The position numbers and the translations under genes were made by a program. Positions 3,142 through 57,741 of a DNA stretch of 64,000 nucleotides are shown here, piece after piece. This DNA is from Lachnospiraceae bacterium (lineage in GTDB: Bacteria; Bacillota; Clostridia; Lachnospirales; Lachnospiraceae): positions 6,771-70,770 of the forward strand of contig JAFQLB010000057.1 of assembly GCA_017396675.1 (NCBI GenBank), in the 5' to 3' direction. The notes below the pieces were generated by a model that was given only the letters and a program-made list of their open reading frames with translations, was not told the origin of the DNA and ran no database searches. Within the stretch, counting starts at the first letter, position 1, and every line of letters begins with the position of its first letter.

Positions 3142-3151
3142 GGAGTTTGTT

Positions 3152-4057: not shown

Positions 4058-4077
4058 AAAATCGGGATTAAAATAAG

Positions 4078-9600: not shown

Positions 9601-9633
9601 AACTATATTTCAACGAGAAAGGAAGTACACAAT

Positions 9634-10497: not shown

Positions 10498-10536
10498 AAT
10501 GATACAGATTATGACAGAAAACAGGAGCGGACGGTA

Positions 10537-40160: not shown

Positions 40161-40862
40161 CTAATCCAGCTCTTCCACATATCGGAACCCTTCCAGATTT
40201 CGGATATTTTCCAGCAGTGTTTTGTGCAGCTTGCGTTTGCCCTGATCCAGCTCCAGCATGGCGCAGACATCAGAATCATACCATTTGTTTTCCGATTGTC
40301 TCTGGAAGGACAGAACTCTGATATGATGGGTGGAGAGGTACTGTTCCAGTCGCAGCATAAATTCCTCGTCGATTCCCTCTACATAGATCTTGATCTGACG
40401 GGAACGTTCGGAAATGAACCTGTCAATATATCGGAAACCGACAGAGGAAATGCACACGATAGCCAGTCCGATCAGTCCGCCCGCATAGAATCCGGAACCG
40501 ATGGCGATCCCGAGTGCTGCGGTTACCCAGAGTGAGGCGGCGGTGGTCAGTCCCATCACTTGTTTGTGACCTGTCACCATAATGGAACCCGCCCCGAGAA
40601 AACCGATACCGCTGATCACTTGGGCGGCCATCCGGGTAATGTCTCCTTCTCCGGGGGAGACGTAAGTATATATGTAGTCATTGGTGATCATGACCAGAGC
40701 GGCACCCACACAGACGAGAGAGAAAGTTTTCAGTCCCGCCGGTCTTCCGCGCAGCTCGCGCTCCAGTCCGATCACGCCGCCGCATACGGAAGCCAGAAGT
40801 AGCTTACACAGAGCAGTGAGTTCAAAGTCGGATATTCCCAGTGCGAATAAATCATTCATCAT
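40161..40862 (-). CDS. mgtC: MgtC/SapB family membrane protein
   Basis: The N-terminal MgtC domain (LLLASVCGGVIGLERELRGRPAGLKT) is followed by a soluble ACT-like C-terminal domain. Confidence 0.85.
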   Translation of the reverse strand: MMNDLFALGISDFELTALCKLLLASVCGGVIGLERELRGRPAGLKTFSLVCVGAALVMITNDYIYTYVSPGEGDITRMAAQVISGIGFLGAGSIMVTGHKQVMGLTTAASLWVTAALGIAIGSGFYAGGLIGLAIVCISSVGFRYIDRFISERSRQIKIYVEGIDEEFMLRLEQYLSTHHIRVLSFQRQSENKWYDSDVCAMLELDQGKRKLHKTLLENIRNLEGFRYVEELD

Positions 40863-40966
40863 AGTGTTCTAAAAGCTCCCTTTTTTGATAAAAATAGTAT
40901 AGCATCTTTCCATGAAAAGAACAGTGATTATGTGATAAAAAAATAATAAAAAAGGTAAAAAAACAG

Positions 40967-40984
40967 TTGTTAATTCTTTAACAA
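40967..40984. promoter_or_regulatory. Putative Rex (NADH/NAD+ sensing repressor) operator
   Basis: TTGTTAATTCTTTAACAA is a perfect 7-4-7 inverted repeat, TTGTTAA-N4-TTAACAA. As I recall, this is the Clostridia variant of the Rex box TTGTGAA-N4-TTCACAA. It covers the -35 element. Confidence 0.6.
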
Positions 40985-40995
40985 TATGATAAAAT
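40967..40995 (+). promoter_or_regulatory. Putative promoter of the mdh-hdr-flx-frd-fum operon
   Basis: TTGTTA (40967-40972), a 17-nt spacer, then TGA-TAAAAT (extended -10, 40990-40995), 43 nt upstream of ATG 41038. Confidence 0.55.
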
Positions 40996-41037
40996 ACAAA
41001 AGAATGAGAGTAAGAAAAAAATAAGTGAGGTAACACC

Positions 41038-42051
41038 ATGAATCAGAAAACCACAAACAAAATCGTTGTCGTAGGCGCAGGAAAGGTAGGGGAGGCCATT
41101 TGCTACACATTGATGTTAAAAATACAGGTCAGCGAGATCGTCATCATCGATGTGGATGAGGAGAGGGCGGAGGGCGCCGCTATGGATATCTCCCACGGTA
41201 CTGCCTATTACAGCCAGGTTAGGATCCGCCAGGGCGGATATGAGGAGTGCGCCGACGCAGCAGCGATTATAGTTACGGCGGGAATTCCCAGAAAACCGGG
41301 TCAGACAAGACTGGATCTGGCCAAGGTAAATACTTCCGTGGCAAAGAGCGTAGCAAGAAACATTATGCAGTATGCCGAGAATCCGCTGATCATCGTGGTG
41401 GCCAATCCGGTAGATGTGAATACATATTTGATCCGTAAGGAGACGGGACTGCCGGCGGGACGCGTCATCGGAACGGGAACCTCTCTGGATACCGCCCGTT
41501 TTCGCTTCCTGATCAGTGAGCTTTGTCATGTGGATGTACGGGATGTCCAAGGGTACATACTGGGAGAGCACGGAGATGCACAGGTGCCCATCTGGAGCGG
41601 TGTGAATGTTGCGGGAGAACCCATTGAGAACTTCCTTCCCATGGCACCCGATCATTGGGAAAAGATAAAAAGTGAAATTGCTGACAAGGCCAAGTCCGGC
41701 GGTGCCGATGTTATTTCCTTGAAGGGAGCCACCTTTGAGGGTATTGCAATGGCTACACTGCGCATCATAGAAGCGATTATCAAGGATCAGAACACGGTGC
41801 TTCCCGTAGCCCATGTACTGGGAGAGGAATACGGGGAGATGGCAGATTCCTGCATCAGTCTGCCATGTGTGATCAACAGCGAGGGAATTTCCAGGGCTCT
41901 GCAGCTGACCATGTCGAAATATGAGGAGCAGCAGATGATCCAATCTGCTCTTACTTTGAAGAGGTTTATCCGGAGTGTCTGCGGAGAGGATGAGGGCAGC
42001 GGAGAGAAGAAGACGAAGGAAACAAAGGAAACAAAAGAAACAAAAAAGTAA
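41038..42051 (+). CDS. mdh: LDH-family 2-hydroxyacid dehydrogenase with MDH-type Arg at the substrate-discriminating position (probable malate dehydrogenase)
   Basis: Contains VVVGAGKVG, LDTARFRF and GEHGD. The loop reads AGIPRKPGQTRLDL, with Arg (codon 41290-41292) where lactate dehydrogenases have Gln. There is a C-terminal KETKETKETKK tail. Confidence 0.8.
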   Translation: MNQKTTNKIVVVGAGKVGEAICYTLMLKIQVSEIVIIDVDEERAEGAAMDISHGTAYYSQVRIRQGGYEECADAAAIIVTAGIPRKPGQTRLDLAKVNTSVAKSVARNIMQYAENPLIIVVANPVDVNTYLIRKETGLPAGRVIGTGTSLDTARFRFLISELCHVDVRDVQGYILGEHGDAQVPIWSGVNVAGEPIENFLPMAPDHWEKIKSEIADKAKSGGADVISLKGATFEGIAMATLRIIEAIIKDQNTVLPVAHVLGEEYGEMADSCISLPCVINSEGISRALQLTMSKYEEQQMIQSALTLKRFIRSVCGEDEGSGEKKTKETKETKETKK

Positions 42052-42109
42052 GCTCTACAAATTAAGCATAGGATAAAAACAAAAGCATAGGAAAGAAGGA
42101 GGAAGACAA

Positions 42110-42898
42110 ATGGTGTATAGTTACTATCCGGGATGTACCTTAAAGAATAAGGCACAGGATCTGGACAAGTATGCCAGAATGTCGGCTGAGGCTCTGGGAT
42201 TTACCCTGGAGGAGATTCAGGAGTGGCAATGCTGCGGCGCCGTGTATCCCATGGCGACGGACGAGATTGCCACCAAGCTCTCCGCAGTACGGGCCTTAAA
42301 CGACGCAAAGGAGAAGGGGCAGGATCTTGTGACACTTTGCTCTGCCTGTCATCATGTGATCAAACGTGTCAATGATGATATGCAAAACGTGGAGGACATC
42401 CGGACCAGGGCAAACAACTACATGGAATTGAAGGAGCCCTACAGCGGAGAAACGAAAGTACTGCATTTTCTGGAGGTGATCAGAGACCGGATCGGTTTTG
42501 ACGCGCTGAAGGAGAAGGTGGTGAAGCCGTTAACGGGAAGAAAGATTGGTGCGTATTACGGCTGTATGCTGCTCCGCCCCGGCAATATCATGGCTTTTGA
42601 TGATCCGGAAAACCCCACCATCATGGAGGATTTCATCAGTGCTCTGGGAGCGGAAGCCGTAGTGTATCCGTACCGCAACGAATGCTGCGGAGGTTATATC
42701 TCCCTGAAGGATAAGGAACTGCCGGGCAAACTGGTAGACCAGGTGATGGCCTCCGCCGCTTATAAGGGTGCAGAGGAATTGATCACCGCCTGTCCTCTCT
42801 GTCTCTACAATCTGAAGCACAGCGGCAGCGGAAAGAAGCTGACGGTCTCCTATATCACGGAGCTGTTGGCAGAAGCACTGGGAGTAAAGGAAGAATAG
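42110..42898 (+). CDS. hdrB: HdrB-like protein with two CCG domains
   Basis: Two complete C...CCG...CxxC motifs are present: C9/C41-C42-G43/C77xxC80, and GC...CCGG...CPLC. Confidence 0.85.
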   Translation: MVYSYYPGCTLKNKAQDLDKYARMSAEALGFTLEEIQEWQCCGAVYPMATDEIATKLSAVRALNDAKEKGQDLVTLCSACHHVIKRVNDDMQNVEDIRTRANNYMELKEPYSGETKVLHFLEVIRDRIGFDALKEKVVKPLTGRKIGAYYGCMLLRPGNIMAFDDPENPTIMEDFISALGAEAVVYPYRNECCGGYISLKDKELPGKLVDQVMASAAYKGAEELITACPLCLYNLKHSGSGKKLTVSYITELLAEALGVKEE

Positions 42899-42909
42899 GG
42901 GGTAGAAGC

Positions 42910-43302
42910 GTGCATAAAACAGAAAAAGATAAGGCTATACTGCTGAGAGAAATGAGCGGTGCCAATGTGGACAAATGTATGAAATGCGGAAAGTGTTCCG
43001 CCTCCTGCCCGTCTTATGACGAAATGGACATCCGGCCCCATCAGTTCGTCTCCTACGTACAGAATGAGGATGTAGAGGCACTGCTGGAATCGAAAAGTCT
43101 CTGGAAATGTCTTTCCTGCTTTGCATGTGTGGAACGCTGTCCCAGAGATGTAAAGCCCGCCATGATCATTGAAGCGGTTCGCCAGATGGTGGTTCGTCAG
43201 AGAGGCGGCAACTATCTGTTGCCCGATGAAGTGCCGGAGCTTTTGGACGAAGAGCTGCCTCAGCAGCTTTTGGCAAGTGCATTCAGGAAGTACAGTAAAT
43301 AG
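42910..43302 (+). CDS. hdrC: HdrC-like 2x[4Fe-4S] ferredoxin subunit
   Basis: CMKCGKCSASCP and CLSCFACVERCP are present. The GTG start is tentative; an internal ATG at 42952 is possible. Confidence 0.8.
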   Translation: MHKTEKDKAILLREMSGANVDKCMKCGKCSASCPSYDEMDIRPHQFVSYVQNEDVEALLESKSLWKCLSCFACVERCPRDVKPAMIIEAVRQMVVRQRGGNYLLPDEVPELLDEELPQQLLASAFRKYSK

Positions 43303-43310
43303 GAGAAAGG

Positions 43311-45311
43311 TTGGAGGTGAATCAAGTGCAAAGAATCGGTGTATTTGTCTGCCATTGCGGAACAAATATCGCGGCCACGGTGGATATCAAGCGGGTATTG
43401 GAAGCGGCAGCGAAGGAGCCCGGCGTCGTTCATGCGGAAGACTATCAGTACATGTGTTCCGAAGCCGGCCAGCAGAAGGTTCGCGAGGCGATCAAAGAAA
43501 AGCAGCTTACGGGAGTCGTGGTTTGTTCCTGTTCTCCCCGTATGCATGAGAATACGTTCCGGGGAGCTGCCCAGAAGGCAGGACTCAATCCTTACATGGT
43601 TGAGATTGCCAATATTCGGGAGCATGTATCATGGATTCATAAGAATATAGAAGAAGGAACGGAAAAGGCCATCATCCTGACAAGAGCAGCCATTGCCAAG
43701 GTCATGCTGAATGCACCGCTGCAGGCAGGTCAAAGCAAGGTTGTAAAACGGGCATTGGTGATCGGCGGAGGTATTGCCGGTATTCAGACGGCACTGGATA
43801 TAGCAGATGCGGGATACGAGGTGGATATCGTGGAGAAAACACCCAGTATCGGAGGCAGAATGTCTCAGCTGGATAAAACATTCCCTACGCTGGACTGCTC
43901 AGCCTGTATTCTGACACCTAAAATGGTGGATGCGGCTGCCCATGAAAAGATCACCATCTACACCTACAGCGAGGTGGAGAAGGTTTCCGGCTTTGTGGGA
44001 GATTTCCAGGTGGATATCCGCAAAAAGGCACGCAGCGTGGATATGAGCAAGTGTACCGGCTGCGGTGTTTGTCAGGAAAAGTGTCCTTCCAAAAAGATAC
44101 CCAATGAATTCAACAGGGAGCTTGACAATCGGGCGGCCATCTATACGCCCTTCGCTCAGGCCATTCCCAATGTTCCCGTCATCGACCGGGAGAACTGTAT
44201 CAAGTTCAAGACGGGGAAATGCGGCGTCTGCTCCAAGGTGTGTCTGGCAGGAGCCGTAGATTACGAACAGCAGGATGAGATCGTCAGTCAGAACTACGGA
44301 GCCATTGTAGTGGCCACAGGTTTTGATACCATCAAGCTGGATAAGTATGAAGAGTATTCCTATCAATCGTGTCCCGACGTAATCACCTCTCTGGAGCTGG
44401 AACGTATCATGAATGCTGCCGGTCCTACCAAAGGACATCTGGAGCGTCTTTCAGACGGAAAAGCGCCCAAATCCATGGTATTCATTCAGTGTGTGGGCTC
44501 CAGGTGCGCGGATGAGAGAGGCAAGAGCTACTGCTCCAAGATCTGTTGTATGTATACGGCCAAGCATGCCATGCTGATCCGGGATAAGTATCCCGATGTG
44601 GATGTGACCGTTTTTTATATCGATGTACGGACACCGGGAAAGAACTTTGATGAATTTTACCGCCGGGCAGTGGAAGAATACGGCGTCCACTATATCAAGG
44701 GTCAGGTAGGTAAGGTGGCGGAACATAACGGCAGACTGCTTGTGCAGGGAGCCGATCTGATCGACAACAGACGTATCCTGATGGAAACGGATATGGTAGT
44801 TCTGGCAACCGCCATTGAACCCAATCCGGATGTGAGAAAGATCGCAACGATGCTGACAGCCAGTATCGATACGAACAACTTCCTGACGGAATCCCATGCC
44901 AAGCTGCGTCCCGTAGAGTCGCCTACCGCAGGAATCTTCCTCTCCGGTGTCTGTCAGGGACCCAAGGATATTCCGGAGACGGTGGCCCAGGCAGGTGCGG
45001 CTGCCATCAAGGTAGTGGGTCTTTTGGCCAAGGATTATCTGGTGACCAACCCTTGCGTGGCCAAGTCCGACGAGCTGTACTGCAACGGATGCTCGGCTTG
45101 CGAGAAGGTATGTCCCTACGGTGCCATTTCCTATGAGGACAGAGAGGTAAATGATCATGGAATCCGTGAAGTCAGAAGAGTGGCAAGCGTAAACAGCGCC
45201 CTCTGTCAGGGGTGCGGCGCCTGTACCGTGGCCTGTCCTTCGGGAGCCATGGACTTGCAGGGCTTTTCAAACAGACAAATTCTTGCGGAGGTGGATGCGA
45301 TATGCAGGTAG
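43311..45311 (+). CDS. hdrA: HdrA-like FAD/Fe-S flavoprotein (candidate bifurcating subunit)
   Basis: Contains N-terminal IGVFVCHCG, the FAD fold ALVIGGGIAGIQTALDIADAGYEV, the inserted ferredoxin CTGCGVCQEKCP / CGVCSKVC, and the C-terminal CNGCSACEKVCP / CQGCGACTVACP. The real start may be GTG 43326, which follows GGAGGTG. Confidence 0.88.
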   Translation: MEVNQVQRIGVFVCHCGTNIAATVDIKRVLEAAAKEPGVVHAEDYQYMCSEAGQQKVREAIKEKQLTGVVVCSCSPRMHENTFRGAAQKAGLNPYMVEIANIREHVSWIHKNIEEGTEKAIILTRAAIAKVMLNAPLQAGQSKVVKRALVIGGGIAGIQTALDIADAGYEVDIVEKTPSIGGRMSQLDKTFPTLDCSACILTPKMVDAAAHEKITIYTYSEVEKVSGFVGDFQVDIRKKARSVDMSKCTGCGVCQEKCPSKKIPNEFNRELDNRAAIYTPFAQAIPNVPVIDRENCIKFKTGKCGVCSKVCLAGAVDYEQQDEIVSQNYGAIVVATGFDTIKLDKYEEYSYQSCPDVITSLELERIMNAAGPTKGHLERLSDGKAPKSMVFIQCVGSRCADERGKSYCSKICCMYTAKHAMLIRDKYPDVDVTVFYIDVRTPGKNFDEFYRRAVEEYGVHYIKGQVGKVAEHNGRLLVQGADLIDNRRILMETDMVVLATAIEPNPDVRKIATMLTASIDTNNFLTESHAKLRPVESPTAGIFLSGVCQGPKDIPETVAQAGAAAIKVVGLLAKDYLVTNPCVAKSDELYCNGCSACEKVCPYGAISYEDREVNDHGIREVRRVASVNSALCQGCGACTVACPSGAMDLQGFSNRQILAEVDAICR

Positions 45312-45748
45312 AGAACAAAAAGGAATTTCAACCGAAAATCGTGGCATTCTGCTGTAATTGGTGCAGCTATGCGGGCGCAGACCTGGCCGGAAGCAGCCGT
45401 CTTGCCTATCCGGCCGACGTTAAGATCATTCGCGTTCCCTGTTCCTGCCGCGTAAACCCCATGTTTATTCTGCGGGCGTTTCAGCGGGGAGCCGACGGAG
45501 TCATAATGTGCGGCTGTCATCCGGGGGACTGCCACTATACAACGGGTAATTATTATGCCAGAAGAAGAATGACCCTTCTTTTCTCCATGCTGGACTATCT
45601 GGGAGTGGAGCACGGACGCACCCGCGTGGAATGGGTGTCCGCAGCAGAGGGCGTCAAATTTTCCACGGTCATGAATGAGTTTGTGGAAAAAATATATTCT
45701 CTGGGTGAAAACGTAAGATTGGAGGACTTAAGATGCAAAGAGAGCTGA
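45302..45748 (+). CDS. MvhD/FlxD-like [2Fe-2S] protein
   Basis: IVAFCCNWCSYAGADLAG, RVPCSCRV and MCGCHPGDCHY are typical of the methyl-viologen-reducing hydrogenase delta subunit family. It overlaps hdrA by 10 nt. Confidence 0.85.
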   Translation: MQVENKKEFQPKIVAFCCNWCSYAGADLAGSSRLAYPADVKIIRVPCSCRVNPMFILRAFQRGADGVIMCGCHPGDCHYTTGNYYARRRMTLLFSMLDYLGVEHGRTRVEWVSAAEGVKFSTVMNEFVEKIYSLGENVRLEDLRCKES

Positions 45749-46713
45749 TGAACCGAGCAAAAGAACTCCTGATCGACGAAACCGTGGTACGCGTTCTTGG
45801 CTGGAAAAAAGGAGATCTGGGTTACAACCACGAACCGGCCTATTTTGACAGCCCGGAGGAACTGGAAGAGAATTTTGTATACGATGCGTTTTGCGGAGCC
45901 AATTTGAGCAAATATATGATCGAAGCGGGAAAGCAGGAGGGAAAGACGCTGGTCTTTTTAAAGCCCTGTGATACATACAGCTTTAATCAATTGCTGAAGG
46001 AGCACCGGATCAAGCGGGAAAACACATATATCATCGGTGTGGGATGTCGGGGCAATCTGGACATTGATAAGATCAAGGCTGCCGGCATCAAGGGAATCGA
46101 GAGTGTGGATGCGGACGGAGATATGCTGAAGGTAAAAACCGTTTACGGTGAAAAAGAGATGCCTTTCGAAGAGGCGCTTCTGGAACGGTGTCTTGCCTGC
46201 AAGGGAAAAACCCACATGGTATATGATGAGCTGATAGGAGCCGGGGAGAAGGAAGAGGCGGGACCGAAAGGAAACCGTTTTGACAGAGTAAGTGAGCTGG
46301 AAAGTCTGTCTCCGGAGGAGAGGTTTGCCTTTTGGCGCAGTGAACTGTCAAAATGTATCCGATGTAATGCCTGCCGCAATGCCTGTCCGGCCTGCAGCTG
46401 TCTGAAATGTGTATTTGACAGCAATCAGTTCGATTCCAATCAAAAGGCAAATGCGGATACCTTTGAAGAGCAGATGTTTCATATTATCCGTGCCTTCCAT
46501 GTGGCAGGACGCTGTACCGACTGCGGTGAATGCAGCCGTGTCTGTCCTCAGGGGATCCCGCTGCATCTTTTGAACCGTAAATTTATAAAGGATATTAATA
46601 CCCTGTACGGAGAATATCAGGCCGGTGAGGATACCGACAGCCTTGCTCCTTTGACAAATTATACCTTTGAGGATGCGGAGCCGGGGATCGTGGCAGAAAG
46701 GGGGCGGAAATGA
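45733..46713 (+). CDS. Fe-S protein, FlxC-like (2x[4Fe-4S] motifs)
   Basis: Contains CIRCNACRNACPAC and CTDCGECSRVCP. It overlaps the upstream gene by 16 nt. The family assignment is tentative. Confidence 0.6.
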   Translation: MQRELMNRAKELLIDETVVRVLGWKKGDLGYNHEPAYFDSPEELEENFVYDAFCGANLSKYMIEAGKQEGKTLVFLKPCDTYSFNQLLKEHRIKRENTYIIGVGCRGNLDIDKIKAAGIKGIESVDADGDMLKVKTVYGEKEMPFEEALLERCLACKGKTHMVYDELIGAGEKEEAGPKGNRFDRVSELESLSPEERFAFWRSELSKCIRCNACRNACPACSCLKCVFDSNQFDSNQKANADTFEEQMFHIIRAFHVAGRCTDCGECSRVCPQGIPLHLLNRKFIKDINTLYGEYQAGEDTDSLAPLTNYTFEDAEPGIVAERGRK

Positions 46714-47735
46714 TGTATAAGATCGATCAGGCAAGGTTAGGAGAGCTGTTTGCGGCAATTGCCGAAAAGAAAGACCTGTTTCTGCCCGTAAAAAAAGCAG
46801 ATCAGACGGATTTTGCCCTCTGGACAAAAGAGGCGGAAGTGGATCTGGATACCTTAAGAACCGTTAAATCACCAAAGGACTGCTTCTTCCCCCAGAGTGA
46901 AACCCTGTATAACACTTCATTGGAAGAAGGAAAGCTGTCCATCGACGCCGCTGCCCTTTGCGACCGTGACTTTGTGGTATTTGGGATGAGAGCCTGTGAC
47001 GTGCAGGCTGTCAAGGTATTGGACAATGTTTTTCTGGCAGATCCGGTGGACACTTATTATGCCGCCAGAAGAGAGCATGCGGTTCTGGTGGCCGGTGCCT
47101 GTCATGAACCGGAGGAGACCTGCTTCTGTAAGGTGTTCGGCATTGATGCTGCTGCACCGGCTGCGGACGTAGCAACCTGGAGGGTTGGAGAGGCGCTCTA
47201 CTGGAAAGCGCTGACCAAGAAGGGGGAGGCACTTTCGGAGGTCGTGAAGGAGCACCTGACACCAGCAGAAGAGAGTGCAGTGGAAGAAGCCCAGACACAG
47301 ATCAGAAGCATCATAGACAAGCTGCCCTATTCTCACCTGAAGCTGGATGTCTTTAAGGAAACACCTATGATGGAGCTGTTTGACTCTGATCGGTGGGAAG
47401 AGATGTATAAGCCCTGTCTGGCCTGCGGCACCTGTACCTTCGTATGTCCTACGTGCCAGTGCTACGATATCCGGGACTTCAAGACGAAGGACGGTGTACA
47501 GCGTTACCGCTGCTGGGATTCCTGTATGTATTCCGATTTTACGATGATGGCTCACGGAAACATGCGTACCAGCCAGATGCAGAGATTCCGCCAGCGTTTT
47601 ATGCATAAGCTTGTGTATTATCCGGACAATTATGAGGGAATGTTTTCCTGTGTGGGCTGCGGCCGTTGTGTCAGCAAGTGCCCGGCGGCACTGAATATTG
47701 TAAAAGTGATCAAAACAATGGGAGGTGAAGGATAA
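46710..47735 (+). CDS. AsrA / sulfhydrogenase-beta (HydB) / FlxB-like Fe-S protein
   Basis: Contains FGMRACD, ETCFCKVFG, CLACGTCTFVCPTCQCYD and CVGCGRCVSKCP, the architecture typical of the AsrA/HydB family. ATGA-type overlap with the neighbouring gene. Confidence 0.7.
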   Translation: MMYKIDQARLGELFAAIAEKKDLFLPVKKADQTDFALWTKEAEVDLDTLRTVKSPKDCFFPQSETLYNTSLEEGKLSIDAAALCDRDFVVFGMRACDVQAVKVLDNVFLADPVDTYYAARREHAVLVAGACHEPEETCFCKVFGIDAAAPAADVATWRVGEALYWKALTKKGEALSEVVKEHLTPAEESAVEEAQTQIRSIIDKLPYSHLKLDVFKETPMMELFDSDRWEEMYKPCLACGTCTFVCPTCQCYDIRDFKTKDGVQRYRCWDSCMYSDFTMMAHGNMRTSQMQRFRQRFMHKLVYYPDNYEGMFSCVGCGRCVSKCPAALNIVKVIKTMGGEG

Positions 47736-48598
47736 TGGGTGAATGTACCTGCGCAACCGGAACAGGGAATAAAAAACAGGATATACTGATCCCGATGATC
47801 GGTGTGATTACGGATATCCGCACGGAAACGCCGGATGTAAAAACCTTTCGCGTGGTGGGCCGTGACGGAAAAAAGCTGTTTGAGCATATGCCGGGACAGT
47901 GTGCTATGGTTTCCGTACCGGGGGTGGGAGAGGCCATGTTTTCCATCACTTCCTCACCTACCAATACCCAGTTCCAGGAATTCAGCATCAAACGCTGTGG
48001 TGTGCTGACGGATTGCCTTCACGGAATGAGCCCGGGAGACGAGGTGACCGTAAGAGGACCCTACGGAAATGCATTTCCGGTGGAGACAGCTCTGAAAGGA
48101 GAAAATCTTCTGTTCATTGCAGGTGGTATCGGACTTGCACCTTTGCGCTCCGTGATCAATTATGTGCTGGATAAGCGTGAGAATTACGGTACCGTGGAAA
48201 TTCTTTACGGCTCCCGTTCCATGGAGGATCTGGTACAGCTGAAGGAAATTCAGGAAGTATGGTGTAAGACAGAAGGAGTGGATGTATATCTGACCATTGA
48301 CCGGGAACAGGAAGGCTGGAACGGTCATGTAGGCTTCGTTCCCTCTTACCTGAAGGAGATTGGATTTTCTACCAATAAGACAGTGCTGGTCTGCGGACCT
48401 CCGATCATGATCAAGTTTGTACTGTCGGGATTGATGGAAATGGGATTTAAAAGAGAACAGATCTATACGACCCTGGAACTTCGGATGAAATGCGGCATCG
48501 GAAAATGCGGACGGTGCAACATCGGCTCCAAATACGTATGTAAGGACGGTCCCGTATTCCGTTTTGATGAAATCGATGAGTTACCGCCTGAATACTAG
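47735..48598 (+). CDS. FAD/NAD(P)H-binding [2Fe-2S] oxidoreductase (PyrK/AsrB/HydG/FlxA-like)
   Basis: Contains the flavin-binding region AMFSITSSP, the nucleotide fold LLFIAGGIGLAPLRS, and the C-terminal cluster CGIGKCGRCNIG...VCKDGPVF. TAATG overlap with the upstream gene. Confidence 0.8.
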   Translation: MGECTCATGTGNKKQDILIPMIGVITDIRTETPDVKTFRVVGRDGKKLFEHMPGQCAMVSVPGVGEAMFSITSSPTNTQFQEFSIKRCGVLTDCLHGMSPGDEVTVRGPYGNAFPVETALKGENLLFIAGGIGLAPLRSVINYVLDKRENYGTVEILYGSRSMEDLVQLKEIQEVWCKTEGVDVYLTIDREQEGWNGHVGFVPSYLKEIGFSTNKTVLVCGPPIMIKFVLSGLMEMGFKREQIYTTLELRMKCGIGKCGRCNIGSKYVCKDGPVFRFDEIDELPPEY

Positions 48599-48642
48599 AA
48601 GCGGTGTACTGTGACAAATTAAGAAGGAAAGGAACAGTAAAA

Positions 48643-49317
48643 ATGCAGAATATGGTAAATGTTTATTTTTATGGAAAACAGTACTCCGTGCCCGCTGAAC
48701 TTACAATCATGACAGCAATGGAATACGCAGGTTATAAGCTGGTACGGGGCTGCGGGTGCCGTCACGGATTCTGCGGCGCCTGTGCAACAATCTACAGAAT
48801 CAAGGGAAGCAATGAATTAAAGACATGTCTGGCCTGCCAGACGCAGGTGCAGGAGGGGATGTACATCTCCACACTTCCCTTCTTCCCGGCGGATAAGAGA
48901 ACCTATGACATGGAAGAGATCAGCGCCGAGCAGCGTGTCATGATGGAGCTGTATCCGGAGATCTACAGCTGCATCGGCTGTAACGCATGTACCAAGGGAT
49001 GTCCTCAGAGTCTGGAAGTAATGCAGTACATTGCCTATGCACAAAGGGGAGACTTTGCAAAATGTGCGGAGGAATCCTTCGACTGTATCAATTGCGGGAT
49101 TTGTACCTCCAGATGTCCTGCCGGCATTTCCCATCCTATGGTAGGTGTGCTGGCAAGGCGCTTGAACGGCAAATATATCGCGCCCAAAACAGAGCATCTG
49201 GCAGAACGTGTGGAAGCCATCAACAGCGGTGCTTTCGATGAGATCATCGAAAAGGTGATGCAAAAGCCCATCGAAGAGATGAAAGAGCTCTACAACACCA
49301 GAGATATTGAGAAATAA
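48643..49317 (+). CDS. Succinate dehydrogenase/fumarate reductase iron-sulfur subunit-like protein
   Basis: An N-terminal 2Fe-2S-type Cys cluster (CGCRHGFCGACATIY...C) is followed by CIGCNACTKGCP and CINCGICTSRCP. ATG 48643 follows AAGGAAAGGA. Confidence 0.75.
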   Translation: MQNMVNVYFYGKQYSVPAELTIMTAMEYAGYKLVRGCGCRHGFCGACATIYRIKGSNELKTCLACQTQVQEGMYISTLPFFPADKRTYDMEEISAEQRVMMELYPEIYSCIGCNACTKGCPQSLEVMQYIAYAQRGDFAKCAEESFDCINCGICTSRCPAGISHPMVGVLARRLNGKYIAPKTEHLAERVEAINSGAFDEIIEKVMQKPIEEMKELYNTRDIEK

Positions 49318-49331
49318 GGAGGGAAGCGCAT

Positions 49332-50936
49332 ATGTTTACAGCAGAAATGTTGGAATCTATTAAAAAGGTAGAGGCCACAAGAGCCGCCAGGATCGGTGTG
49401 GAGCCGAGAAGAATGACGGCAGAGGAAAAAGATGAGCTTCTCCGCAAATTTCATCCGGATTACAGAGCGGAAGGATTCCAGGAAATCAAAGTCGGGCCTA
49501 ACAAAGGTGAAAAGGCGCCTTACGAGCTGGGAACACTTCTCCACTCCAACAGCCGTCTGTTGGGAGCGCCCATCAATCTGGAGAAGGTGGACTACGATGT
49601 GGACGTACTCGTGATCGGAGGAGGCGGAGCGGGTTCCTCGGCTGCCATTGAAGCACACGAAGCCGGTGCCAATGTCATGCTGGTAACGAAGCTGCGGATC
49701 GGTGACGCCAATACCATGATGGCAGAGGGCGGAATCCAGGCAGCAGACAAAGAAAATGATTCTCCCCAGCAGCATTATCTGGATGCCTTCGGAGGCGGAC
49801 ATTTTGCAGCAAGACCGGAGCTTCTTCGCCGTCTTGTCATGGAAGCACCGGACGCAATCCGTTGGCTGAACGATCTGGGCGTTATGTTTGATAAGGATCC
49901 GGACGGAAGAATGGTAACCACTCACGGAGGAGGAACCTCCAGAAAGCGTATGCATGCCTGTAAGGATTATTCCGGTGCGGAGATCATGCGTGTGCTCAGA
50001 GATGAGGTATGGAACCGTCAGATTCCCGTAGTGGACTTTACAGCAGCCGTAGAGCTGATTATGGACGATCAGGGACAGGTAGCAGGTGCCGTCCTGCAGA
50101 ATATGGAGACGGGCGTATATCTGGTGGCCAGAGCCAAGACCGTGATCATTGCAACGGGTGGCGCAGGAAGGCTGCATTATCAGGATTTTCCTACCTCCAA
50201 CCACTACGGAGCCACGGCCGACGGCCTGGTGATGGGATACCGTGCGGGAGCACCCTTGCTGTATCAGGATACCATCCAGTATCATCCTACCGGCGTAGCT
50301 TATCCTGCACAGATCTTCGGCGCTCTTGTAACGGAGAAGGTACGTTCTCTGGGAGCCATGCTGATCAATGCGGAAGGTGAAGCGTTTATGCATCCTCTGG
50401 AGACCCGTGATGTGTCCGCTGCTTCCATTATCCGGGAATGCAGGGAACGGGGGAAAGGCGTTCCCACACCCACGGGATTTGGAATCTGGCTGGATACTCC
50501 CATGATCGAAATGATTCACGGCGAGGGTACCATAGAGAAGAGGATTCCCGCTATGCTCCGCATGTATTTAAATTATGACATTGATATGAGAAAGCAGCCG
50601 ATTCTGATCTATCCTACGCTGCATTACCAGAACGGCGGTCTGGAGATCGGAGGAGAGGGCTTTACCAAGGCCATTCCCAACCTGCTGGTAGCAGGAGAGG
50701 CAGTGGGAGGCATCCACGGAAGAAATCGTCTCATGGGGAATTCCCTGCTGGATATCATCGTATTTGGCCGTAATGCAGGCAAGGCGGCAGCCGGAAAATG
50801 TAAGGAAGTGACTCTGGGAAGAATGAATCTGGATCATAGTCAGACCTATGCGGAAGAATTAAAGGCAGCCGGACTGGACACACAGGAGGTATCTCCGCTG
50901 CTTCTGCCCAAATATACATTCGGCATGCCCAAATAA
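49332..50936 (+). CDS. Succinate dehydrogenase/fumarate reductase flavoprotein-like FAD protein (soluble)
   Basis: Contains VDVLVIGGGGAGSSAA, ATGGAGRLH, QYHPTG and LMGNSLLDIIVFGRNAG. There is a roughly 85-aa N-terminal extension. No membrane-anchor gene is nearby. Confidence 0.8.
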   Translation: MFTAEMLESIKKVEATRAARIGVEPRRMTAEEKDELLRKFHPDYRAEGFQEIKVGPNKGEKAPYELGTLLHSNSRLLGAPINLEKVDYDVDVLVIGGGGAGSSAAIEAHEAGANVMLVTKLRIGDANTMMAEGGIQAADKENDSPQQHYLDAFGGGHFAARPELLRRLVMEAPDAIRWLNDLGVMFDKDPDGRMVTTHGGGTSRKRMHACKDYSGAEIMRVLRDEVWNRQIPVVDFTAAVELIMDDQGQVAGAVLQNMETGVYLVARAKTVIIATGGAGRLHYQDFPTSNHYGATADGLVMGYRAGAPLLYQDTIQYHPTGVAYPAQIFGALVTEKVRSLGAMLINAEGEAFMHPLETRDVSAASIIRECRERGKGVPTPTGFGIWLDTPMIEMIHGEGTIEKRIPAMLRMYLNYDIDMRKQPILIYPTLHYQNGGLEIGGEGFTKAIPNLLVAGEAVGGIHGRNRLMGNSLLDIIVFGRNAGKAAAGKCKEVTLGRMNLDHSQTYAEELKAAGLDTQEVSPLLLPKYTFGMPK

Positions 50937-50952
50937 AAGGAGGTAAGGATTC

Positions 50953-51795
50953 ATGCGTGAAATTCAGGCACAACAGATTACGGATGTTGTGGAAAAGTTA
51001 TGTATTGAAGCAAACCAGTTTTTGCCAAAGGATGTACAGGGCGCCATCCGACGCTGCCGTGAGTGTGAGGATTGGGATATTGCCAAAGGCGTGCTGGATC
51101 AGATCATCACCAATTTTGAAATTGCGGAAGATGAGCAGGTTCCCATCTGCCAGGATACGGGTATGGCCTGTGTCTTTCTGGAAATCGGACAGGATGTACA
51201 TATCGTTGGCGGAGATCTGAGAGAAGCGGTAGATGAAGGTGTGCGCCGCGGCTATGACAAGGGATATCTTCGTAAATCCGTTGTCAAGGATCCGGTGCGC
51301 AGAGGCAATACGGGAGACAATACGCCGGCCATGCTGTATACGGAAATCGTTCCCGGCGAGAAGATCAAGGTAACGGTGGGACCCAAGGGCTTCGGCAGTG
51401 AAAATATGAGTGCCATTCGCATGTTCAAGCCCTCTGCCGGTATCCAGGGAATCAAGGATTTCATTTTGGAAACAGTGGAAACAGCAGGACCCAATCCATG
51501 TCCTCCCATGGTGGTAGGCGTGGGAATCGGCGGTACCTTTGATAAATGTGCGCTTTTGGCAAAAAAGGCATTGATGAGAAGCACCGACATTCGGAATCCT
51601 GACCCCTATTACGCAGAGCTGGAGGCAGAAATGCTGGAGAAGATCAACAGCCTTGGTATCGGGCCCCAGGGCTTTGGCGGAAAGACTACGGCACTGGCTT
51701 TGAATATCGAAACCTTACCTACCCACATTGCGGGTATGCCTTGTGCCATCAATATCAACTGCCATGTGACACGTCATCAAACGGAGGTGATCTAG
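50953..51795 (+). CDS. fumA: Class I (Fe-S) fumarate hydratase, alpha subunit
   Basis: 280 aa. Contains PICQDTGMA and an Fe-S hydro-lyase (tartrate/fumarate) alpha-type layout. Confidence 0.85.
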   Translation: MREIQAQQITDVVEKLCIEANQFLPKDVQGAIRRCRECEDWDIAKGVLDQIITNFEIAEDEQVPICQDTGMACVFLEIGQDVHIVGGDLREAVDEGVRRGYDKGYLRKSVVKDPVRRGNTGDNTPAMLYTEIVPGEKIKVTVGPKGFGSENMSAIRMFKPSAGIQGIKDFILETVETAGPNPCPPMVVGVGIGGTFDKCALLAKKALMRSTDIRNPDPYYAELEAEMLEKINSLGIGPQGFGGKTTALALNIETLPTHIAGMPCAININCHVTRHQTEVI

Positions 51796-51796
51796 A

Positions 51797-52354
51797 ATGG
51801 AAAAACGTATTCAGCTTCCCTTAACAGAAGAAGTGGCAAAAAGTCTTCGTGCCGGCGACAGTGTATTGCTAACCGGTACCATATATACCTCCCGGGATGC
51901 CGGTCACAAGAGAATGTGTGAAACACTGGCACGTGGAGAGGAGCTTCCCTTCGATCCCAAGGATGCCACCATTTACTATGTGGGTCCTACGCCGGCCAAG
52001 CCGGGTCAGGTCATCGGATCTGCAGGTCCCACCACCAGCGGTCGTATGGATGCTTATGCGCCTACCATGATGTCCGTGGGAGCCAGAGGCATGATCGGCA
52101 AAGGTGCCAGACTTCCCGAAGTGGTGGAAGCCATGAAGAAATACAGCGGCGTATACTTCGGAGCCATCGGCGGTGCAGGCGCCCTTCTTGCAAAGTGCAT
52201 CAAGAAGTGTGAACTGATCGCATACGAGGATCTTGGAGCGGAAGCCCTTCGTGAACTGTATGTGGAGGATATGCCTCTTGTGGTCATTATCGACAGTGAG
52301 GGCCGCAATCTCTACGAAGACGGTAAGGCTGCTTATCTTTCCCGGAAGAAATAG
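51797..52354 (+). CDS. fumB: Class I (Fe-S) fumarate hydratase, beta subunit
   Basis: 185 aa. Contains GTIYTSRDAGHKR, GPTTSGRMD and GKG. It starts 1 nt after the alpha subunit. Confidence 0.85.
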   Translation: MEKRIQLPLTEEVAKSLRAGDSVLLTGTIYTSRDAGHKRMCETLARGEELPFDPKDATIYYVGPTPAKPGQVIGSAGPTTSGRMDAYAPTMMSVGARGMIGKGARLPEVVEAMKKYSGVYFGAIGGAGALLAKCIKKCELIAYEDLGAEALRELYVEDMPLVVIIDSEGRNLYEDGKAAYLSRKK

Positions 52355-53488: not shown

Positions 53489-53611
53489 ATTACTGTAGCA
53501 TTTTTTTGAAAAACAGTGTATATTAGTAAAAAGGCATGTTCACATGCCGTGTTTTTGTGCGGCTTTTTTGTGAATGTCAATATGCGTATAGCAGAAAGGT
53601 ATGGTGTAGAA

Positions 53612-54925
53612 ATGGCAAAACTGACATTTGCCGGGGGGATTCACCCTTACGACGGGAAGGAGTTATCCAAGGATAAGCCGATTACGGATTATCTTCCCAA
53701 GGGAGATTTGGTATATCCCCTGTCGCAGCACATAGGCGCACCTGCAGCACCTATTGTAAAGCCGGGCGATCACGTCAAAACGGGACAGAAGATCGCCGAA
53801 GCAGGAGGATTTGTGTCCGCACCGGTCTACGCAACGGTTTCGGGCACCGTGAAGTCCATTGAACCGAGACGGGTCGTGGTCGGAGATAAGGTGATGTGTA
53901 TTGTGTTGGAGAATGACCATCAATACGAGGAAGTCACCTATGAACCGGGTGATCCGGAAGAAATGTCGAGGGAAGAGATCCTAAGCCGCATCAAGGAGGC
54001 AGGGATCGTGGGAATGGGAGGAGCCGGTTTTCCCACCCATGTGAAATTGTCACCAAAGGAACCGGATAAGATTGATTACGTGATTGCAAACTGTGCCGAG
54101 TGTGAGCCCTATCTTACCTCCGACTATCGCAGGATCTTAGAGGAGCCGGAGAAGGTGGTAGGCGGTCTGAAGACCATTCTGGAATTGTTTCCCAATGCCA
54201 CGGGAATTCTCGGTGTAGAGGATAACAAGCCGGACTGCATTAAGATTTTAAAGGATCTCACCAGAGATGAATCGAGAATCCTTGTTAAAGAATTGGCAAC
54301 CAAATATCCCCAGGGTGCGGAGCGGCAGTTGATTTATGCCACTACCAAGAGGAAGCTGAATTCATCGATGCTGCCTGCTGACGTAGGCTGTGTTGTGAAT
54401 AACGTGGATACGGTAGTGGCGATTTATAATGCCGTGGTTCTGGGAAGACCGCTGATGCACAGGATCGTGACGGTGACGGGAGATGCGGTTGCCGACCCCA
54501 GGAATTTCCGGGTATGCGTGGGTACCAGCTACAAAGAGCTGATGGATGCTGCGGGAGGATTGAAGGCGGAGCCGGAGAAAATCATCTGCGGCGGCCCTAT
54601 GATGGGATTTTCGCTGTTTGAACTGGATGTTCCTACCACCAAGTCTGCCTCTGCCCTGCTTTGTTTGACAAAGGATGAGGTCTCCAGGATGGAGCCGTCT
54701 GCCTGTATCAACTGCGGAAGATGCGTGGAGGCATGTCCCAGTACGTTGGTGCCCAGCAGACTGGCGGATATTGCAGAGCGTCATAATAAGGAAGAATTTG
54801 TCAGACTGGACGGCATGGAGTGCTGCGAGTGCGGATGCTGCAGCTTTATCTGCCCTGCCAAGCGCCATCTGACCCAGAGCATCAAGTCGATGCGTAAAAT
54901 AATTCTGGCGGACAGAAAGAAGTAG
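53612..54925 (+). CDS. rnfC: Rnf complex subunit C
   Basis: Starts MAKLTFAGGIHP. Contains GMGGAGFPTHVK and the ferredoxin motifs CINCGRCVEACP / CCECGCCSFICP. Confidence 0.92.
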   Translation: MAKLTFAGGIHPYDGKELSKDKPITDYLPKGDLVYPLSQHIGAPAAPIVKPGDHVKTGQKIAEAGGFVSAPVYATVSGTVKSIEPRRVVVGDKVMCIVLENDHQYEEVTYEPGDPEEMSREEILSRIKEAGIVGMGGAGFPTHVKLSPKEPDKIDYVIANCAECEPYLTSDYRRILEEPEKVVGGLKTILELFPNATGILGVEDNKPDCIKILKDLTRDESRILVKELATKYPQGAERQLIYATTKRKLNSSMLPADVGCVVNNVDTVVAIYNAVVLGRPLMHRIVTVTGDAVADPRNFRVCVGTSYKELMDAAGGLKAEPEKIICGGPMMGFSLFELDVPTTKSASALLCLTKDEVSRMEPSACINCGRCVEACPSTLVPSRLADIAERHNKEEFVRLDGMECCECGCCSFICPAKRHLTQSIKSMRKIILADRKK

Positions 54926-54936
54926 GAGGAATGAGC

Positions 54937-55869: not shown

Positions 55870-56447
55870 AACAGATGATGAAAGATACCTTTGTTATTTT
55901 TATGATTACGTTAATCTCCGGTCTGTTGCTGGGGGGTGTATACGAGATCACCAAAGCGCCCATAGCCCAACAGGAGGCGCGCAGAAAAAATGAAGCCTGT
56001 CAGAATGTCTTTTCCGATGCCGCTACGTTTACGGCTCTGGAAACAGAGAAAGAGGAGGGGAAAGCCGCTGCTGAGGTGGAAGGTGCATACGAGGCTCTGG
56101 CAGCAGACGGCAGCCTGCTGGGATATGTGGTGGAGATAGTGACCCATGAAGGCTACAACGGAGACATTCAGTTTTCCGTGGGGATCAGGCTGGACGGTAC
56201 CGTCAACGGCATTTCCCTGCTGTCCATTGCGGAAACACCGGGTCTTGGTATGCAGGCAGAGGATGTGATACAGCCTCAGTTTGAGGGAAAGACGGCATCC
56301 GTATTTGAAAGTACGAAGACAGGAGCTGTGGCGGAGCATCAGATCGATGCCATCAGCGGAGCTACGATTACCACGAACGCCATTGTAGAGGGCGTCAATA
56401 CGGGAGTGGCTTATTTTCAGACGCAGCTGTTAGGAGGTGGTCAGTGA
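55866..56447 (+). CDS. rnfG: Rnf complex subunit G
   Basis: An N-terminal anchor is followed by an FMN-binding domain with the flavinylation motif SGATIT (Ser codon at 56355). Confidence 0.9.
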   Translation: MKQMMKDTFVIFMITLISGLLLGGVYEITKAPIAQQEARRKNEACQNVFSDAATFTALETEKEEGKAAAEVEGAYEALAADGSLLGYVVEIVTHEGYNGDIQFSVGIRLDGTVNGISLLSIAETPGLGMQAEDVIQPQFEGKTASVFESTKTGAVAEHQIDAISGATITTNAIVEGVNTGVAYFQTQLLGGGQ

Positions 56448-56448
56448 T

Positions 56449-57141: not shown

Positions 57142-57144
57142 GGT

Positions 57145-57726: not shown

Positions 57727-57741
57727 GAGGAGGAGTCTGGT

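Follow-up and report, generated by a model that had tools for sequence, protein, structure and literature searches.

Why should a gut bacterium of the Lachnospiraceae keep the genes for HdrABC and Flx electron-transfer proteins in one operon with those for a fumarate reductase that has no membrane anchor? The question is raised by twelve genes in a stretch of 64,000 nucleotides from contig JAFQLB010000057.1 (metagenome-assembled genome GCA_017396675.1), the whole of which we call the window. Besides the Hdr, Flx and fumarate reductase (FrdBA) subunits, the operon encodes an enzyme of the malate dehydrogenase (MDH) type and a two-subunit fumarase (FumAB). An earlier note on this DNA, made from the sequence letters alone, had proposed that these proteins couple the reduction of fumarate by NADH to the reduction of ferredoxin. 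Our analysis suggests that on balance this is probably correct and that the operon encodes a soluble, quinone-independent and NADH-driven fumarate reductase that would also yield reduced ferredoxin by electron bifurcation at HdrA. As such it would cover the final three steps of the reductive branch from oxaloacetate via malate and fumarate to succinate, the last of them being catalysed by a multi-subunit soluble fumarate reductase built around a bifurcation-type HdrA.

All twelve open reading frames were found on the forward strand where the earlier note had placed them, and the bounds of the cluster coincide exactly with the ATG of its first gene (41038) and the stop codon of its last (52354). 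Profile hidden Markov model annotation, which the note had called for, confirmed its labels: Pfam and NCBIfam profiles agree with each gene identity in the order mdh, hdrB, hdrC, hdrA, mvhD/flxD, flxC, flxB, flxA, frdB, frdA, fumA, fumB. The genes are as tightly packed as first described, with overlaps of 10 nt (hdrA/flxD), 16 nt (flxD/flxC), 4 nt (flxC/flxB) and 1 nt (flxB/flxA), and the remaining gaps as first called measure 58, 11, 8, 5, 14, 16 and 1 nt. As first called, all starts but one (11 of 12) follow a GGAGG-like ribosome-binding site, the exception being the GTG of frdB at 48604. The true start of frdB is likely to be an ATG at 48643, judged from a purine-rich ribosome-binding site that is weaker than the others and better than the stretch before the GTG; the gap between flxA and frdB would then grow from 5 to 44 nt. 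No terminator-like match falls within any intergenic gap of the operon. Terminator-like matches occur at background rate (14 seen against 13.2 expected from shuffled sequence), and the scan for internal terminators and promoters, whose matches came at the shuffled-sequence rate, was not counted as evidence. The cysteine motifs are intact throughout the redox subunits (both CCG pairs of HdrB, the ferredoxin motifs and the [2Fe-2S] motif of FlxA were all seen), and the statement that a quinol anchor is missing also held. The highest Kyte-Doolittle means over 19 residues are 1.72 (FlxA) and 1.62 (Mdh); read by eye, the translations place both peaks most plausibly in the Rossmann or nucleotide-binding parts of soluble families, and by hydrophobicity none of the 12 products is a membrane anchor or hydrophobic subunit.

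When aligned to E. coli SdhA and its relatives, the flavoprotein FrdA keeps the His of QYHPTG, the TEKVR motif, the proton-donor Arg (RD), the His of HYQNGG and the Arg of NRLMGNSL (H318, T334/E335, R338, R359, H431 and R466). In the numbering of E. coli FrdA the site that we looked for comprises H232, T244/E245, R287, H355 and R390, and it is complete. Its residues are invariant in 58 family members, except for E335, which is found in at least 90% of them. Where E. coli SdhA has the His that binds flavin adenine dinucleotide (FAD) covalently (SHT), FrdA has Asn127 (GDANTMMAEGG), and this Asn is invariant across the same 58 bacterial and archaeal proteins. The His is kept in two longer homologues (P0182 and P0195) that lack the N-terminal extension of the family and were not identified as TfrA or SdhA. 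As the Asn predicts, the FAD of FrdA would be bound non-covalently. In FrdA His44 mutants, losing the covalent link to FAD abolishes succinate oxidation but not fumarate reduction, and non-covalent FAD goes together with enzymes that only reduce fumarate. FrdA thus fits a reductase because an Asn stands where the covalent-FAD His would be.

FrdA has a conserved N-terminal extension of 88 aa and a conserved C-terminal tail. PF02910 (Succ_DH_flav_C) gave no match in it, and the protein ends ∼40 residues past the FAD domain. The family that shares the extension forms a handful of clusters at 50% clustering. An AlphaFold2 model of FrdA (pLDDT 82, pTM 0.86) has its best structural match in the FrdA subunit of E. 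coli quinol:fumarate reductase (1kf6_A, TM-score 0.68), in line with the FAD_binding_2 fold and capping domain of SdhA/FrdA flavoproteins. Curated profile scores were used as a proxy for a tree to place the protein among SdhA, FrdA, NadB and TfrA, and by these scores it reaches no equivalog cut-off (TfrA 324 bits against 718, Sdh/Frd 278 against 819, NadB 262 against 639). These values might suggest that the substrate is another enoate or L-aspartate instead of fumarate, or that the system runs toward succinate oxidation, and the NadB models (250-262 bits against 278 for Sdh/Frd), the unique extension and the missing C-terminal domain could be read in the same way. We nevertheless regard this as very improbable. 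The dicarboxylate-binding residues are all conserved, FrdB is present as a dedicated iron-sulfur partner, and fumarase and MDH genes share the operon in most loci; to our knowledge, NadB has no iron-sulfur partner. Against succinate oxidation speak the loss of the covalent-FAD His and the energetics, since confurcation of succinate and reduced ferredoxin to NADH would be endergonic at standard potentials. L-aspartate oxidase and other enoate reductases were ruled out as identities of FrdA by the profile scores, the dedicated FrdB and the operon context.

The enzymes that would supply fumarate are encoded at both ends of the operon. FumA exceeds the cut-off of the fumarate hydratase model NF004885 (422 bits against 276) and FumB that of the 'Fe-S-containing hydro-lyase' equivalog NF005310 (289 bits against 238). 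Tartrate dehydratase was ruled out for the pair (TtdA 176 against a cut-off of 365, TtdB 93 against 264). The product of gene 1 exceeds the NCBIfam cut-offs for L-lactate dehydrogenase (LDH), yet AGIPRKPGQTR is found in its specificity loop, in contrast to NQKPGQTR in the true LDH 3wsv. Its best PDB match, the Clostridium thermocellum protein 1y6j, carries NRKPG. From the Gln102Arg switch of LDH it is known that Arg at this position specifies oxaloacetate/malate. Because Arg replaces Gln at the substrate-specificity position, gene 1 is predicted to encode an MDH and not an LDH, and the MDH-type call of the earlier note stands despite the L-LDH score. L-lactate dehydrogenase was ruled out by this Arg together with the match to the C. 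thermocellum-type protein.

Of 49 related loci, 36 have a gene of the Ldh/Mdh family immediately in front of hdrB. Most of these genes are only 33-37% identical to the window gene, yet they carry the same Arg. So the slot upstream of hdrB seems to keep its position and function although it is filled by different paralogues. The window MDH and the 33-37%-identical genes (positions 1677-2612 of locus L002 and equivalents) all exceed the NCBIfam L-lactate dehydrogenase cut-offs, and such Arg-bearing upstream genes are probably mis-named LDH systematically in annotations. The MDH of the window also ends in a 22-residue, Lys/Glu-rich tail of low complexity (GEDEGSGEKKTKETKETKETKK, encoded at 41986-42051), which is missing from the 81%-identical orthologue in locus L039.

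At the centre of the proposed complex stands HdrA, which matches the HdrA of the MvhADG-HdrABC structure 5ODC from end to end (its residues 7-664 against 4-649 of the latter, 676 bits). It has the N-terminal CHCG motif and three CxxCxxCxxxCP motifs, belonging to the inserted and the C-terminal ferredoxin, and it aligns well with Fdh-Hdr structures, too. The short, non-bifurcating HdrA of a sulfur oxidiser (6tjr, 349 aa) matches residues 330-571 only. HdrA is thus predicted to be of the full-length bifurcating type. The genes hdrA, hdrB and hdrC are contiguous with the MvhD-like flxD, as in FlxABCD-HdrABC systems. No [NiFe]-hydrogenase MvhAG was found in the operon by Pfam or NCBIfam, and FlxABC stands in its place.

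It might be possible that Hdr and Flx only relay electrons to FrdBA, so that the enzyme, a soluble NAD(P)H:fumarate oxidoreductase, does not bifurcate and leaves ferredoxin unreduced. Three observations speak for this: a soluble, five-subunit, NADH-dependent fumarate reductase was purified from Hydrogenobacter thermophilus (Miura et al. 2008, as cited in PMC13147460), non-bifurcating HdrA-like proteins such as 6tjr are known, and a study on Blautia luti models its enzyme as plain NADH-dependent (PMC12773636). However, the full-length, bifurcation-type HdrA of the window has both ferredoxin domains as a low-potential exit, and a relay through nine redox subunits, seven of them Hdr or Flx, would waste ∼350 mV of driving force. 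Moreover, a far simpler relay seems to be enough for this FrdBA family. In metagenome-assembled genomes (MAGs) of marine Gammaproteobacteria (loci L081-L083, positions 9366-12891) frdB, frdA and a nuoF-like gene (Complex1_51K and NADH_4Fe-4S domains) are translationally coupled, FrdA being 48% identical to that of the window, and no Hdr was found at these loci. This trio is a candidate for a simple soluble NADH:fumarate reductase, and because it occurs without Hdr, Hdr would not be needed merely to wire NADH to FrdBA. An Asgard archaeal locus described below also copies the known bifurcating Mvh-Hdr layout in front of FrdBA. We therefore consider a simple relay rather unlikely and retain the bifurcating complex as the favoured reading.

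Electrons would enter this complex through the Flx subunits. FlxA matches HydG/AsrB/PyrK-type models and has the motif GIGLAP and a C-terminal [2Fe-2S] motif CX4CX2CX7C. FlxB matches ShyB/HydB/AsrA models (E = 1e-43 to 1e-55) and, in the PDB, the beta subunit of sulfhydrogenase I (9nez_B, E = 6e-42), and it has two CxxCxxCxxxCP motifs. FlxC is only distant kin to it, the ferredoxin parts of the two aligning at E = 7e-5. Together the three provide the NAD(P)H/FAD/[2Fe-2S] protein and the two [4Fe-4S] proteins that are characteristic of Flx. The electron donor would be NAD(P)H, presumably NADH rather than NADPH. The Hdr-Flx genes of the window are ordered hdrBCA-flxDCBA; in Desulfovibrio vulgaris the order is presumably flxABCD-hdrABC.

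The electrons would leave toward fumarate through HdrC, HdrB and FrdB. HdrC has two CxxCxxCxxxCP motifs. HdrB contains 10 Cys and two complete CX31CCX34-35CXXC motifs and is expected from these to bind two non-cubane [4Fe-4S] clusters. Its NCBIfam matches are SdhE of 8-methylmenaquinol:fumarate reductase (139 bits), HdrB (133 bits) and the C-terminus of TfrB (E = 2e-8), so that it scores against the SdhE of the Campylobacter-type methylmenaquinol:fumarate reductase as well as against methanogen HdrB. FrdB (224-237 aa, depending on the start) has motifs for one [2Fe-2S] and two [4Fe-4S] clusters, the latter as a pair of CxxCxxCxxxCP motifs, and no 3Fe-4S motif. The best NCBIfam match of FrdB is the N-terminal part of TfrB (profile positions 17-185 of 488), and HdrB matches positions 414-487 of the same profile. 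As the TfrB profile matches FrdB with its N-terminal and HdrB with its C-terminal part, the FrdB and CCG modules are found fused in a characterised enzyme.

The resemblance to Tfr brings up another possibility, namely that Flx-HdrABC reduces ferredoxin and a disulfide (of a small thiol or a DsrC-like protein) and that FrdAB is a Tfr-like thiol:fumarate reductase which uses the resulting thiol. TfrA is indeed the top curated model for FrdA and TfrB that for FrdB, the CCG motifs that make up the disulfide-reducing site in methanogens are both intact in HdrB, and a DsrC-like variant is among the models published for Ca. Endoriftia (PMC11636981). On the other hand, FrdB has no CCG domains by Pfam or NCBIfam, and these form the thiol-oxidising site of TfrB; HdrB is the only CCG protein of the operon. 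The 324 bits of FrdA are far below the TfrA cut-off of 718, and the operon contains no gene for a thiol carrier or a DsrC-like protein. We know of no Clostridia that make coenzyme M (CoM) or coenzyme B (CoB). A thiol shuttle thus appears improbable, and a direct path from HdrB to FrdB is the version of the bifurcating model that we prefer.

According to this model, NAD(P)H would donate electrons to FlxA (FAD and [2Fe-2S]), from which they would pass over the [4Fe-4S] clusters of FlxB and FlxC and the [2Fe-2S] cluster of FlxD to the FAD of HdrA, where the electron pair would be split. The downhill branch would lead via HdrC, the CCG clusters of HdrB, FrdB (two [4Fe-4S] and one [2Fe-2S]) and the non-covalent FAD of FrdA to fumarate, and the uphill branch through the ferredoxin domains of HdrA to ferredoxin. 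The transfer from HdrC to HdrB is a known electron path in HdrABC. The net reaction would be 2 NADH + fumarate + Fd(ox) -> 2 NAD+ + succinate + Fd(red). At standard potentials, the transfer from NADH to fumarate yields about -67 kJ and that from NADH to ferredoxin costs about +19 to +35 kJ; because the former outweighs the latter, the coupled reaction is clearly exergonic, by roughly -33 to -48 kJ. Either Rnf, creating an ion-motive force, or a hydrogenase might re-oxidise the reduced ferredoxin. Energy would in that case be conserved during succinate formation with no quinone involved, much as butyrate producers achieve it by means of Bcd-Etf and Rnf. The proposal of the earlier note fits the active site of FrdA, the type of HdrA, the gene order in relatives and the Hdr-FrdBA loci of archaea; complex formation, the path from HdrB to FrdB, bifurcation and stoichiometry are what we infer beyond these.

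How widespread is this arrangement? The best 120 matches of a protein search were all close relatives. A scan of one genome per species gave at least 585 matches, from both MAGs and isolates; their labels include Lachnospiraceae, Oscillospiraceae, Acutalibacteraceae, Faecousia, Lawsonibacter, Dorea and Mediterraneibacter, and Blautia schinkii also carries the cluster (L080). The neighbourhood survey proposed in the earlier note was run on 80 close loci (L001-L080) with a FrdA identity of 77-93%, of which 52 had enough upstream sequence, and the hdr-flx genes do recur beside frdBA: hdrB-hdrC-hdrA-flxD-flxC-flxB-flxA-frdB-frdA is colinear in 52/52 of these gut Clostridia loci, and no locus showed a gapped hdr-flx-frd pattern. 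The genes fumAB follow frdA in 64 of 71 loci and are missing in seven. In one of the latter (L016) an Asp-Al_Ex (AAE/SucE-like) permease is found by Pfam after frdA (11673-12926), and in another (L039) a hydrophobic open reading frame, by its position a putative permease of the same kind, lies in a like place (11629-12921). A permease after frdA echoes the putative succinate transporter in the operon of Pseudoclostridium thermosuccinogenes. Among the 80 loci, the FrdA sequences of genomes with the label Lachnospiraceae share 83-86% identity with those from genomes that bear the labels Oscillospiraceae, Acutalibacteraceae or Faecousia, which suggests horizontal spread of the whole cluster or mislabelled MAGs.

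Relatives outside the Clostridia are more informative than the close loci and allow a different explanation to be weighed, in which the operon encodes two separate, co-transcribed enzymes: Flx-Hdr would serve another acceptor or act as an NADH:ferredoxin module, and FrdAB would be fed independently, for example by reduced ferredoxin. FrdAB does occur without Hdr, in the Gammaproteobacteria with the NuoF-like protein, in Prochlorococcus sp. MIT 1201 (L084), where an frdA-frdB pair of 43% identity lies at 8001-10357, and in a Bathyarchaeota locus (L087) that reads malic enzyme-fumA-fumB-frdB-frdA and has its CCG gene 8 kb off. The fumarate reductase activity of Blautia, too, was assayed with methyl viologen only (PMC12773636). 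Against two enzymes stand the colinearity in all 52 assessable loci and the adjacency of hdrB and frdB in archaeal versions despite their other input module; in addition, Flx-Hdr alone would be without the high-potential acceptor which bifurcation requires. We regard two independent enzymes as about as improbable as a thiol shuttle, and keep to a single bifurcating complex in what follows. In Prochlorococcus the pair has no Hdr, Flx or NuoF-like neighbour and is surrounded by short open reading frames without Pfam matches, apart from an adjacent acetyltransferase; FrdA-FrdB of the window type was unexpected in a cyanobacterium. A further contig (L085) carries frdA alone, and a protein of 727 aa (P0123) is a natural fusion of FrdB (N-terminal ∼228 aa) and FrdA, 54% identical to the FrdA of the window.

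The archaeal loci suggest what the recurrent unit might be. Locus L086, whose closest named relatives are Bathyarchaeota MAGs, has the order OFOR-hdrA-mvhD-hdrC-hdrB-frdB-frdA, with no flxABC on its 10-kb contig. In the Asgardarchaeia locus L088 (42-11656) the order is OFOR-hdrA-mvhD-mvhG-mvhA-hycI-hdrC-hdrB-frdB-frdA, at 38-59% identity to the window. The hdrA gene of this locus (2614-4539) was missing among the called genes and was recovered by tblastn at 50% identity. As judged from its genes, L088 appears to be a version of the Hdr-FrdBA core with H2 as input, the Mvh [NiFe]-hydrogenase occupying the place that Flx has in the window. Because the archaeal loci keep the core while the input module differs, the recurrent unit is predicted to be HdrA-MvhD-HdrC-HdrB plus FrdB-FrdA with an exchangeable input, either Flx/NAD(P)H or Mvh/H2, and with a NuoF-like protein where Hdr is absent. 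In papers on Asgard and related archaea the flavoprotein is interpreted as a Tfr that depends on CoM/CoB, and Mvh-Hdr as an enzyme that reduces a disulfide. A broader hypothesis, which we put forward tentatively and hold to be possible, is that HdrABC with an anchor-less, non-covalent-FAD FrdBA may be an ancient modular core for quinone-independent, ferredoxin-reducing fumarate reduction in Bacteria and Archaea, with interchangeable inputs (Flx in Clostridia, Mvh in Asgard archaea) and a non-bifurcating NuoF-like version in marine Gammaproteobacteria, and that gut Lachnospiraceae and Oscillospiraceae may rely on it as their main, so far overlooked way to conserve energy while making succinate.

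Several points weigh against the bifurcating model. For every member of this kind, whatever goes beyond the gene content is deduced. For electron transfer from HdrB to FrdB the TfrB fusion is the sole structural precedent, and FlxA-type modules occur in NADH- and NADPH-using enzymes alike, for example as the gamma subunit of sulfhydrogenase. The synteny of the close loci is partly non-independent, given their 77-93% identity, and the cluster has probably been spread by gene transfer. In Ca. Endoriftia the expression of tfrAB diverges from that of the rest of the cluster (PMC11636981). The tie to the P. thermosuccinogenes operon is one of published gene content. Finally, the adjacency of Rnf is not conserved in relatives and is specific to the lineage of the window: a complete rnf operon follows 1.2 kb downstream of the operon and outside it (Table 1), and rnfC was absent from the fetched flanks (at most 10 kb on each side) of 80/80 related loci. 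Conserved Rnf adjacency was dropped for this reason.

The operon lies between a divergent MgtC-family gene upstream and a convergent gene of the RNase_H_2 superfamily downstream. A putative promoter in front of mdh, a match to the consensus (TTGTTA-17-TAAAAT, TG-extended), lies at 40967-40995. A scan of the whole window with Rfam gave no match and hence no leader RNA. The stop codons of fumB and the RNase_H_2 gene are 9 nt apart, with no terminator-like structure between them.

Table 1. Features in and around the operon (positions in the window)
Feature	Position	Strand	Evidence and remarks
MgtC-family gene	40161-40862	-	Pfam; divergent, upstream boundary of the operon
AT-rich intergenic region, 175 bp, with promoter-like site	40863..41037	+	upstream of mdh
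mdh, predicted LDH-family malate dehydrogenase, 337 aa	41038..42051	+	Ldh_1_N and Ldh_1_C; Arg at specificity position
HdrB-like, 262 aa, two CCG domains	42110..42898	+	PF02754 twice
HdrC-like, 130 aa, motifs for two [4Fe-4S]	42910..43302	+	HdrC models, E = 1e-20
HdrA, 666 aa, FAD and Fe-S, presumed bifurcating flavoprotein	43311..45311	+	HdrA2 model, 777 bits
MvhD/FlxD-like [2Fe-2S] connector, 148 aa	45302..45748	+	PF02662 (FlpD), 181.6 bits
FlxC-like Fe-S protein, 326 aa	45733..46713	+	Fer4; two CxxCxxCxxxCP
FlxB-like Fe-S protein, 341 aa, AsrA/sulfhydrogenase-beta type	46710..47735	+	Fer4_22
FlxA-like NAD(P)H flavoprotein, 287 aa	47735..48598	+	FAD_binding_6, NAD_binding_1, DHODB_Fe-S_bind
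FrdB-like Fe-S subunit	48604..49317 as called (likely start ATG 48643, 224 aa)	+	Fer2_4 and Fer4
FrdA-like flavoprotein, 534 aa	49332..50936	+	FAD_binding_2 (PF00890), 240 bits
FumA, class I (Fe-S) fumarate hydratase alpha, 280 aa	50953..51795	+	PF05681 (Fumerase), 398 bits
FumB, class I fumarate hydratase beta, 185 aa	51797..52354	+	PF05683 (Fumerase_C)
RNase_H_2 superfamily gene, 374 aa	52364-53488	-	convergent, downstream boundary of the operon
rnfCDGEAB (ferredoxin:NAD+ oxidoreductase), complete	53516-58527	+	Pfam; outside the operon, 1.2 kb downstream

If the model were true, many abundant gut Clostridia would conserve energy via ferredoxin and Rnf, and without any quinone, as they form succinate; this would be a C4-dicarboxylate counterpart of Bcd-Etf/Rnf. 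Fumarate would join the short list of high-potential acceptors in HdrA-based bifurcation, and the CCG module of HdrB would be able to pass electrons to an Fe-S/flavin reductase rather than to a disulfide. Predictions of H2 and succinate fluxes in models of the gut and rumen would be affected. The assumed balances of ATP and redox equivalents would change as well, for example in the model for Blautia luti (PMC12773636). This succinate producer shows 500-990 mU/mg of methyl-viologen-dependent fumarate reductase in crude extract and transcribes frdAB highly, and the 2026 study assumed a plain NADH-dependent enzyme, with Hdr/Flx unmentioned (PMC12773636).

The novelty that the earlier note implied did not hold, as the same hypothesis has been published (PMC7282089; PMC6315080; PMC11636981; PMC13147460). 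Its remark that it was aware of no biochemically characterised Hdr/Flx-coupled fumarate reductase agrees with our literature search, in which no biochemical demonstration of Flx-Hdr-coupled, ferredoxin-reducing fumarate reduction was found. The hypothesis dates from 2019/2020, and the window adds a further member, a very wide spread in gut Clostridia and a core common to Archaea. The 2019 hypothesis is directly testable, since the genes form a compact unit, are abundant and occur in Blautia species that can be cultivated. As in the predicted Flx-Hdr fumarate reductases, the flx-hdr genes of the window are contiguous with an anchor-less frdAB and with genes of the C4 branch. Closest in described gene content is the 'succinate operon' of P. 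thermosuccinogenes (PMC7282089), which comprises fumarate hydratase, seven genes for Flx-Hdr and two for a fumarate reductase, together with a putative transporter. A Flx-Hdr-coupled fumarate reductase was predicted for this species in a 2019 preprint by Koendjbiharie and van Kranenburg (as cited in PMC7282089), and its succinate formation was proposed to be coupled to ferredoxin reduction, NADH being the driving donor as proposed for the window. The operon is ∼4-fold up at low CO2 (PMC7282089), and H2 abolishes or suppresses succinate formation according to earlier work as summarised in that paper. The species differs in being a thermophile of another family, with the fumarase gene listed first, whereas in the window fumarase comes last and mdh first.

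A second published type comes from the tubeworm symbionts and Thioflavicoccus mobilis, for which Rubin-Blum et al. described clusters with tfrAB and korABCD scattered among flxABCD-hdrABC and suggested that the products form a single complex for electron shuttling (PMC6315080); later papers added co-expression data and restated the bifurcating model (PMC11636981, PMC13147460). In Ca. Endoriftia, the Escarpia symbiont and T. mobilis, as in the window, Flx-Hdr lies beside an anchor-less AB-type fumarate reductase with Rnf nearby, and NADH-driven, bifurcating reduction of fumarate and ferredoxin has been proposed. However, these are autotrophic Gammaproteobacteria using the reductive tricarboxylic acid cycle, with an embedded 2-oxoglutarate:ferredoxin oxidoreductase, whereas the window is fermentative and has mdh and fumAB. 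The FlxABCD-HdrABC of Desulfovibrio vulgaris (Ramos et al. 2015, as cited in PMC7282089 and PMC6315080) has the same seven subunit types; there, according to these citing papers, the proposed acceptor is the DsrC disulfide in ethanol metabolism, whereas in the window FrdBA is appended. TfrAB of Methanothermobacter (Heim et al. 1998, as described in PMC6315080) is soluble and anchor-less and links FrdB-type clusters to CCG domains, as the window proteins would do; TfrB is a single FrdB-CCG fusion, whereas FrdB and HdrB of the window are separate genes, and TfrAB relies on CoM/CoB thiols, which are not expected in Clostridia. The purified fumarate reductase of H. thermophilus is described as cytoplasmic, NADH-dependent and irreversible, without use of a quinone (Miura et al. 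2008, as cited in PMC13147460). Compared by this description, it differs from the window in that its genes are dispersed in the genome and that the description reports no ferredoxin coupling.

Two well-known systems show the same energetic logic. In butyrate-forming Clostridia, Bcd-EtfAB uses NADH to reduce ferredoxin together with a C=C acceptor whose potential is near 0 mV, and Rnf turns the reduced ferredoxin into ion-motive force. It is a functional analogue only, as it belongs to unrelated families (Etf and acyl-CoA dehydrogenase) and acts on a CoA-thioester. With MvhADG-HdrABC of methanogens (5ODC, 8RVU) the window shares HdrA as a full-length match, the CCG protein HdrB, HdrC and MvhD, and both follow the logic of splitting a medium-potential donor between ferredoxin and a high-potential acceptor. 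The donor in methanogens is a [NiFe]-hydrogenase and the acceptor is CoM-S-S-CoB, whereas in the window the donor would be Flx/NAD(P)H and the proposed acceptor fumarate via FrdBA. Between the two stands the Asgardarchaeia locus, which combines MvhAGD, HdrACB and FrdBA.

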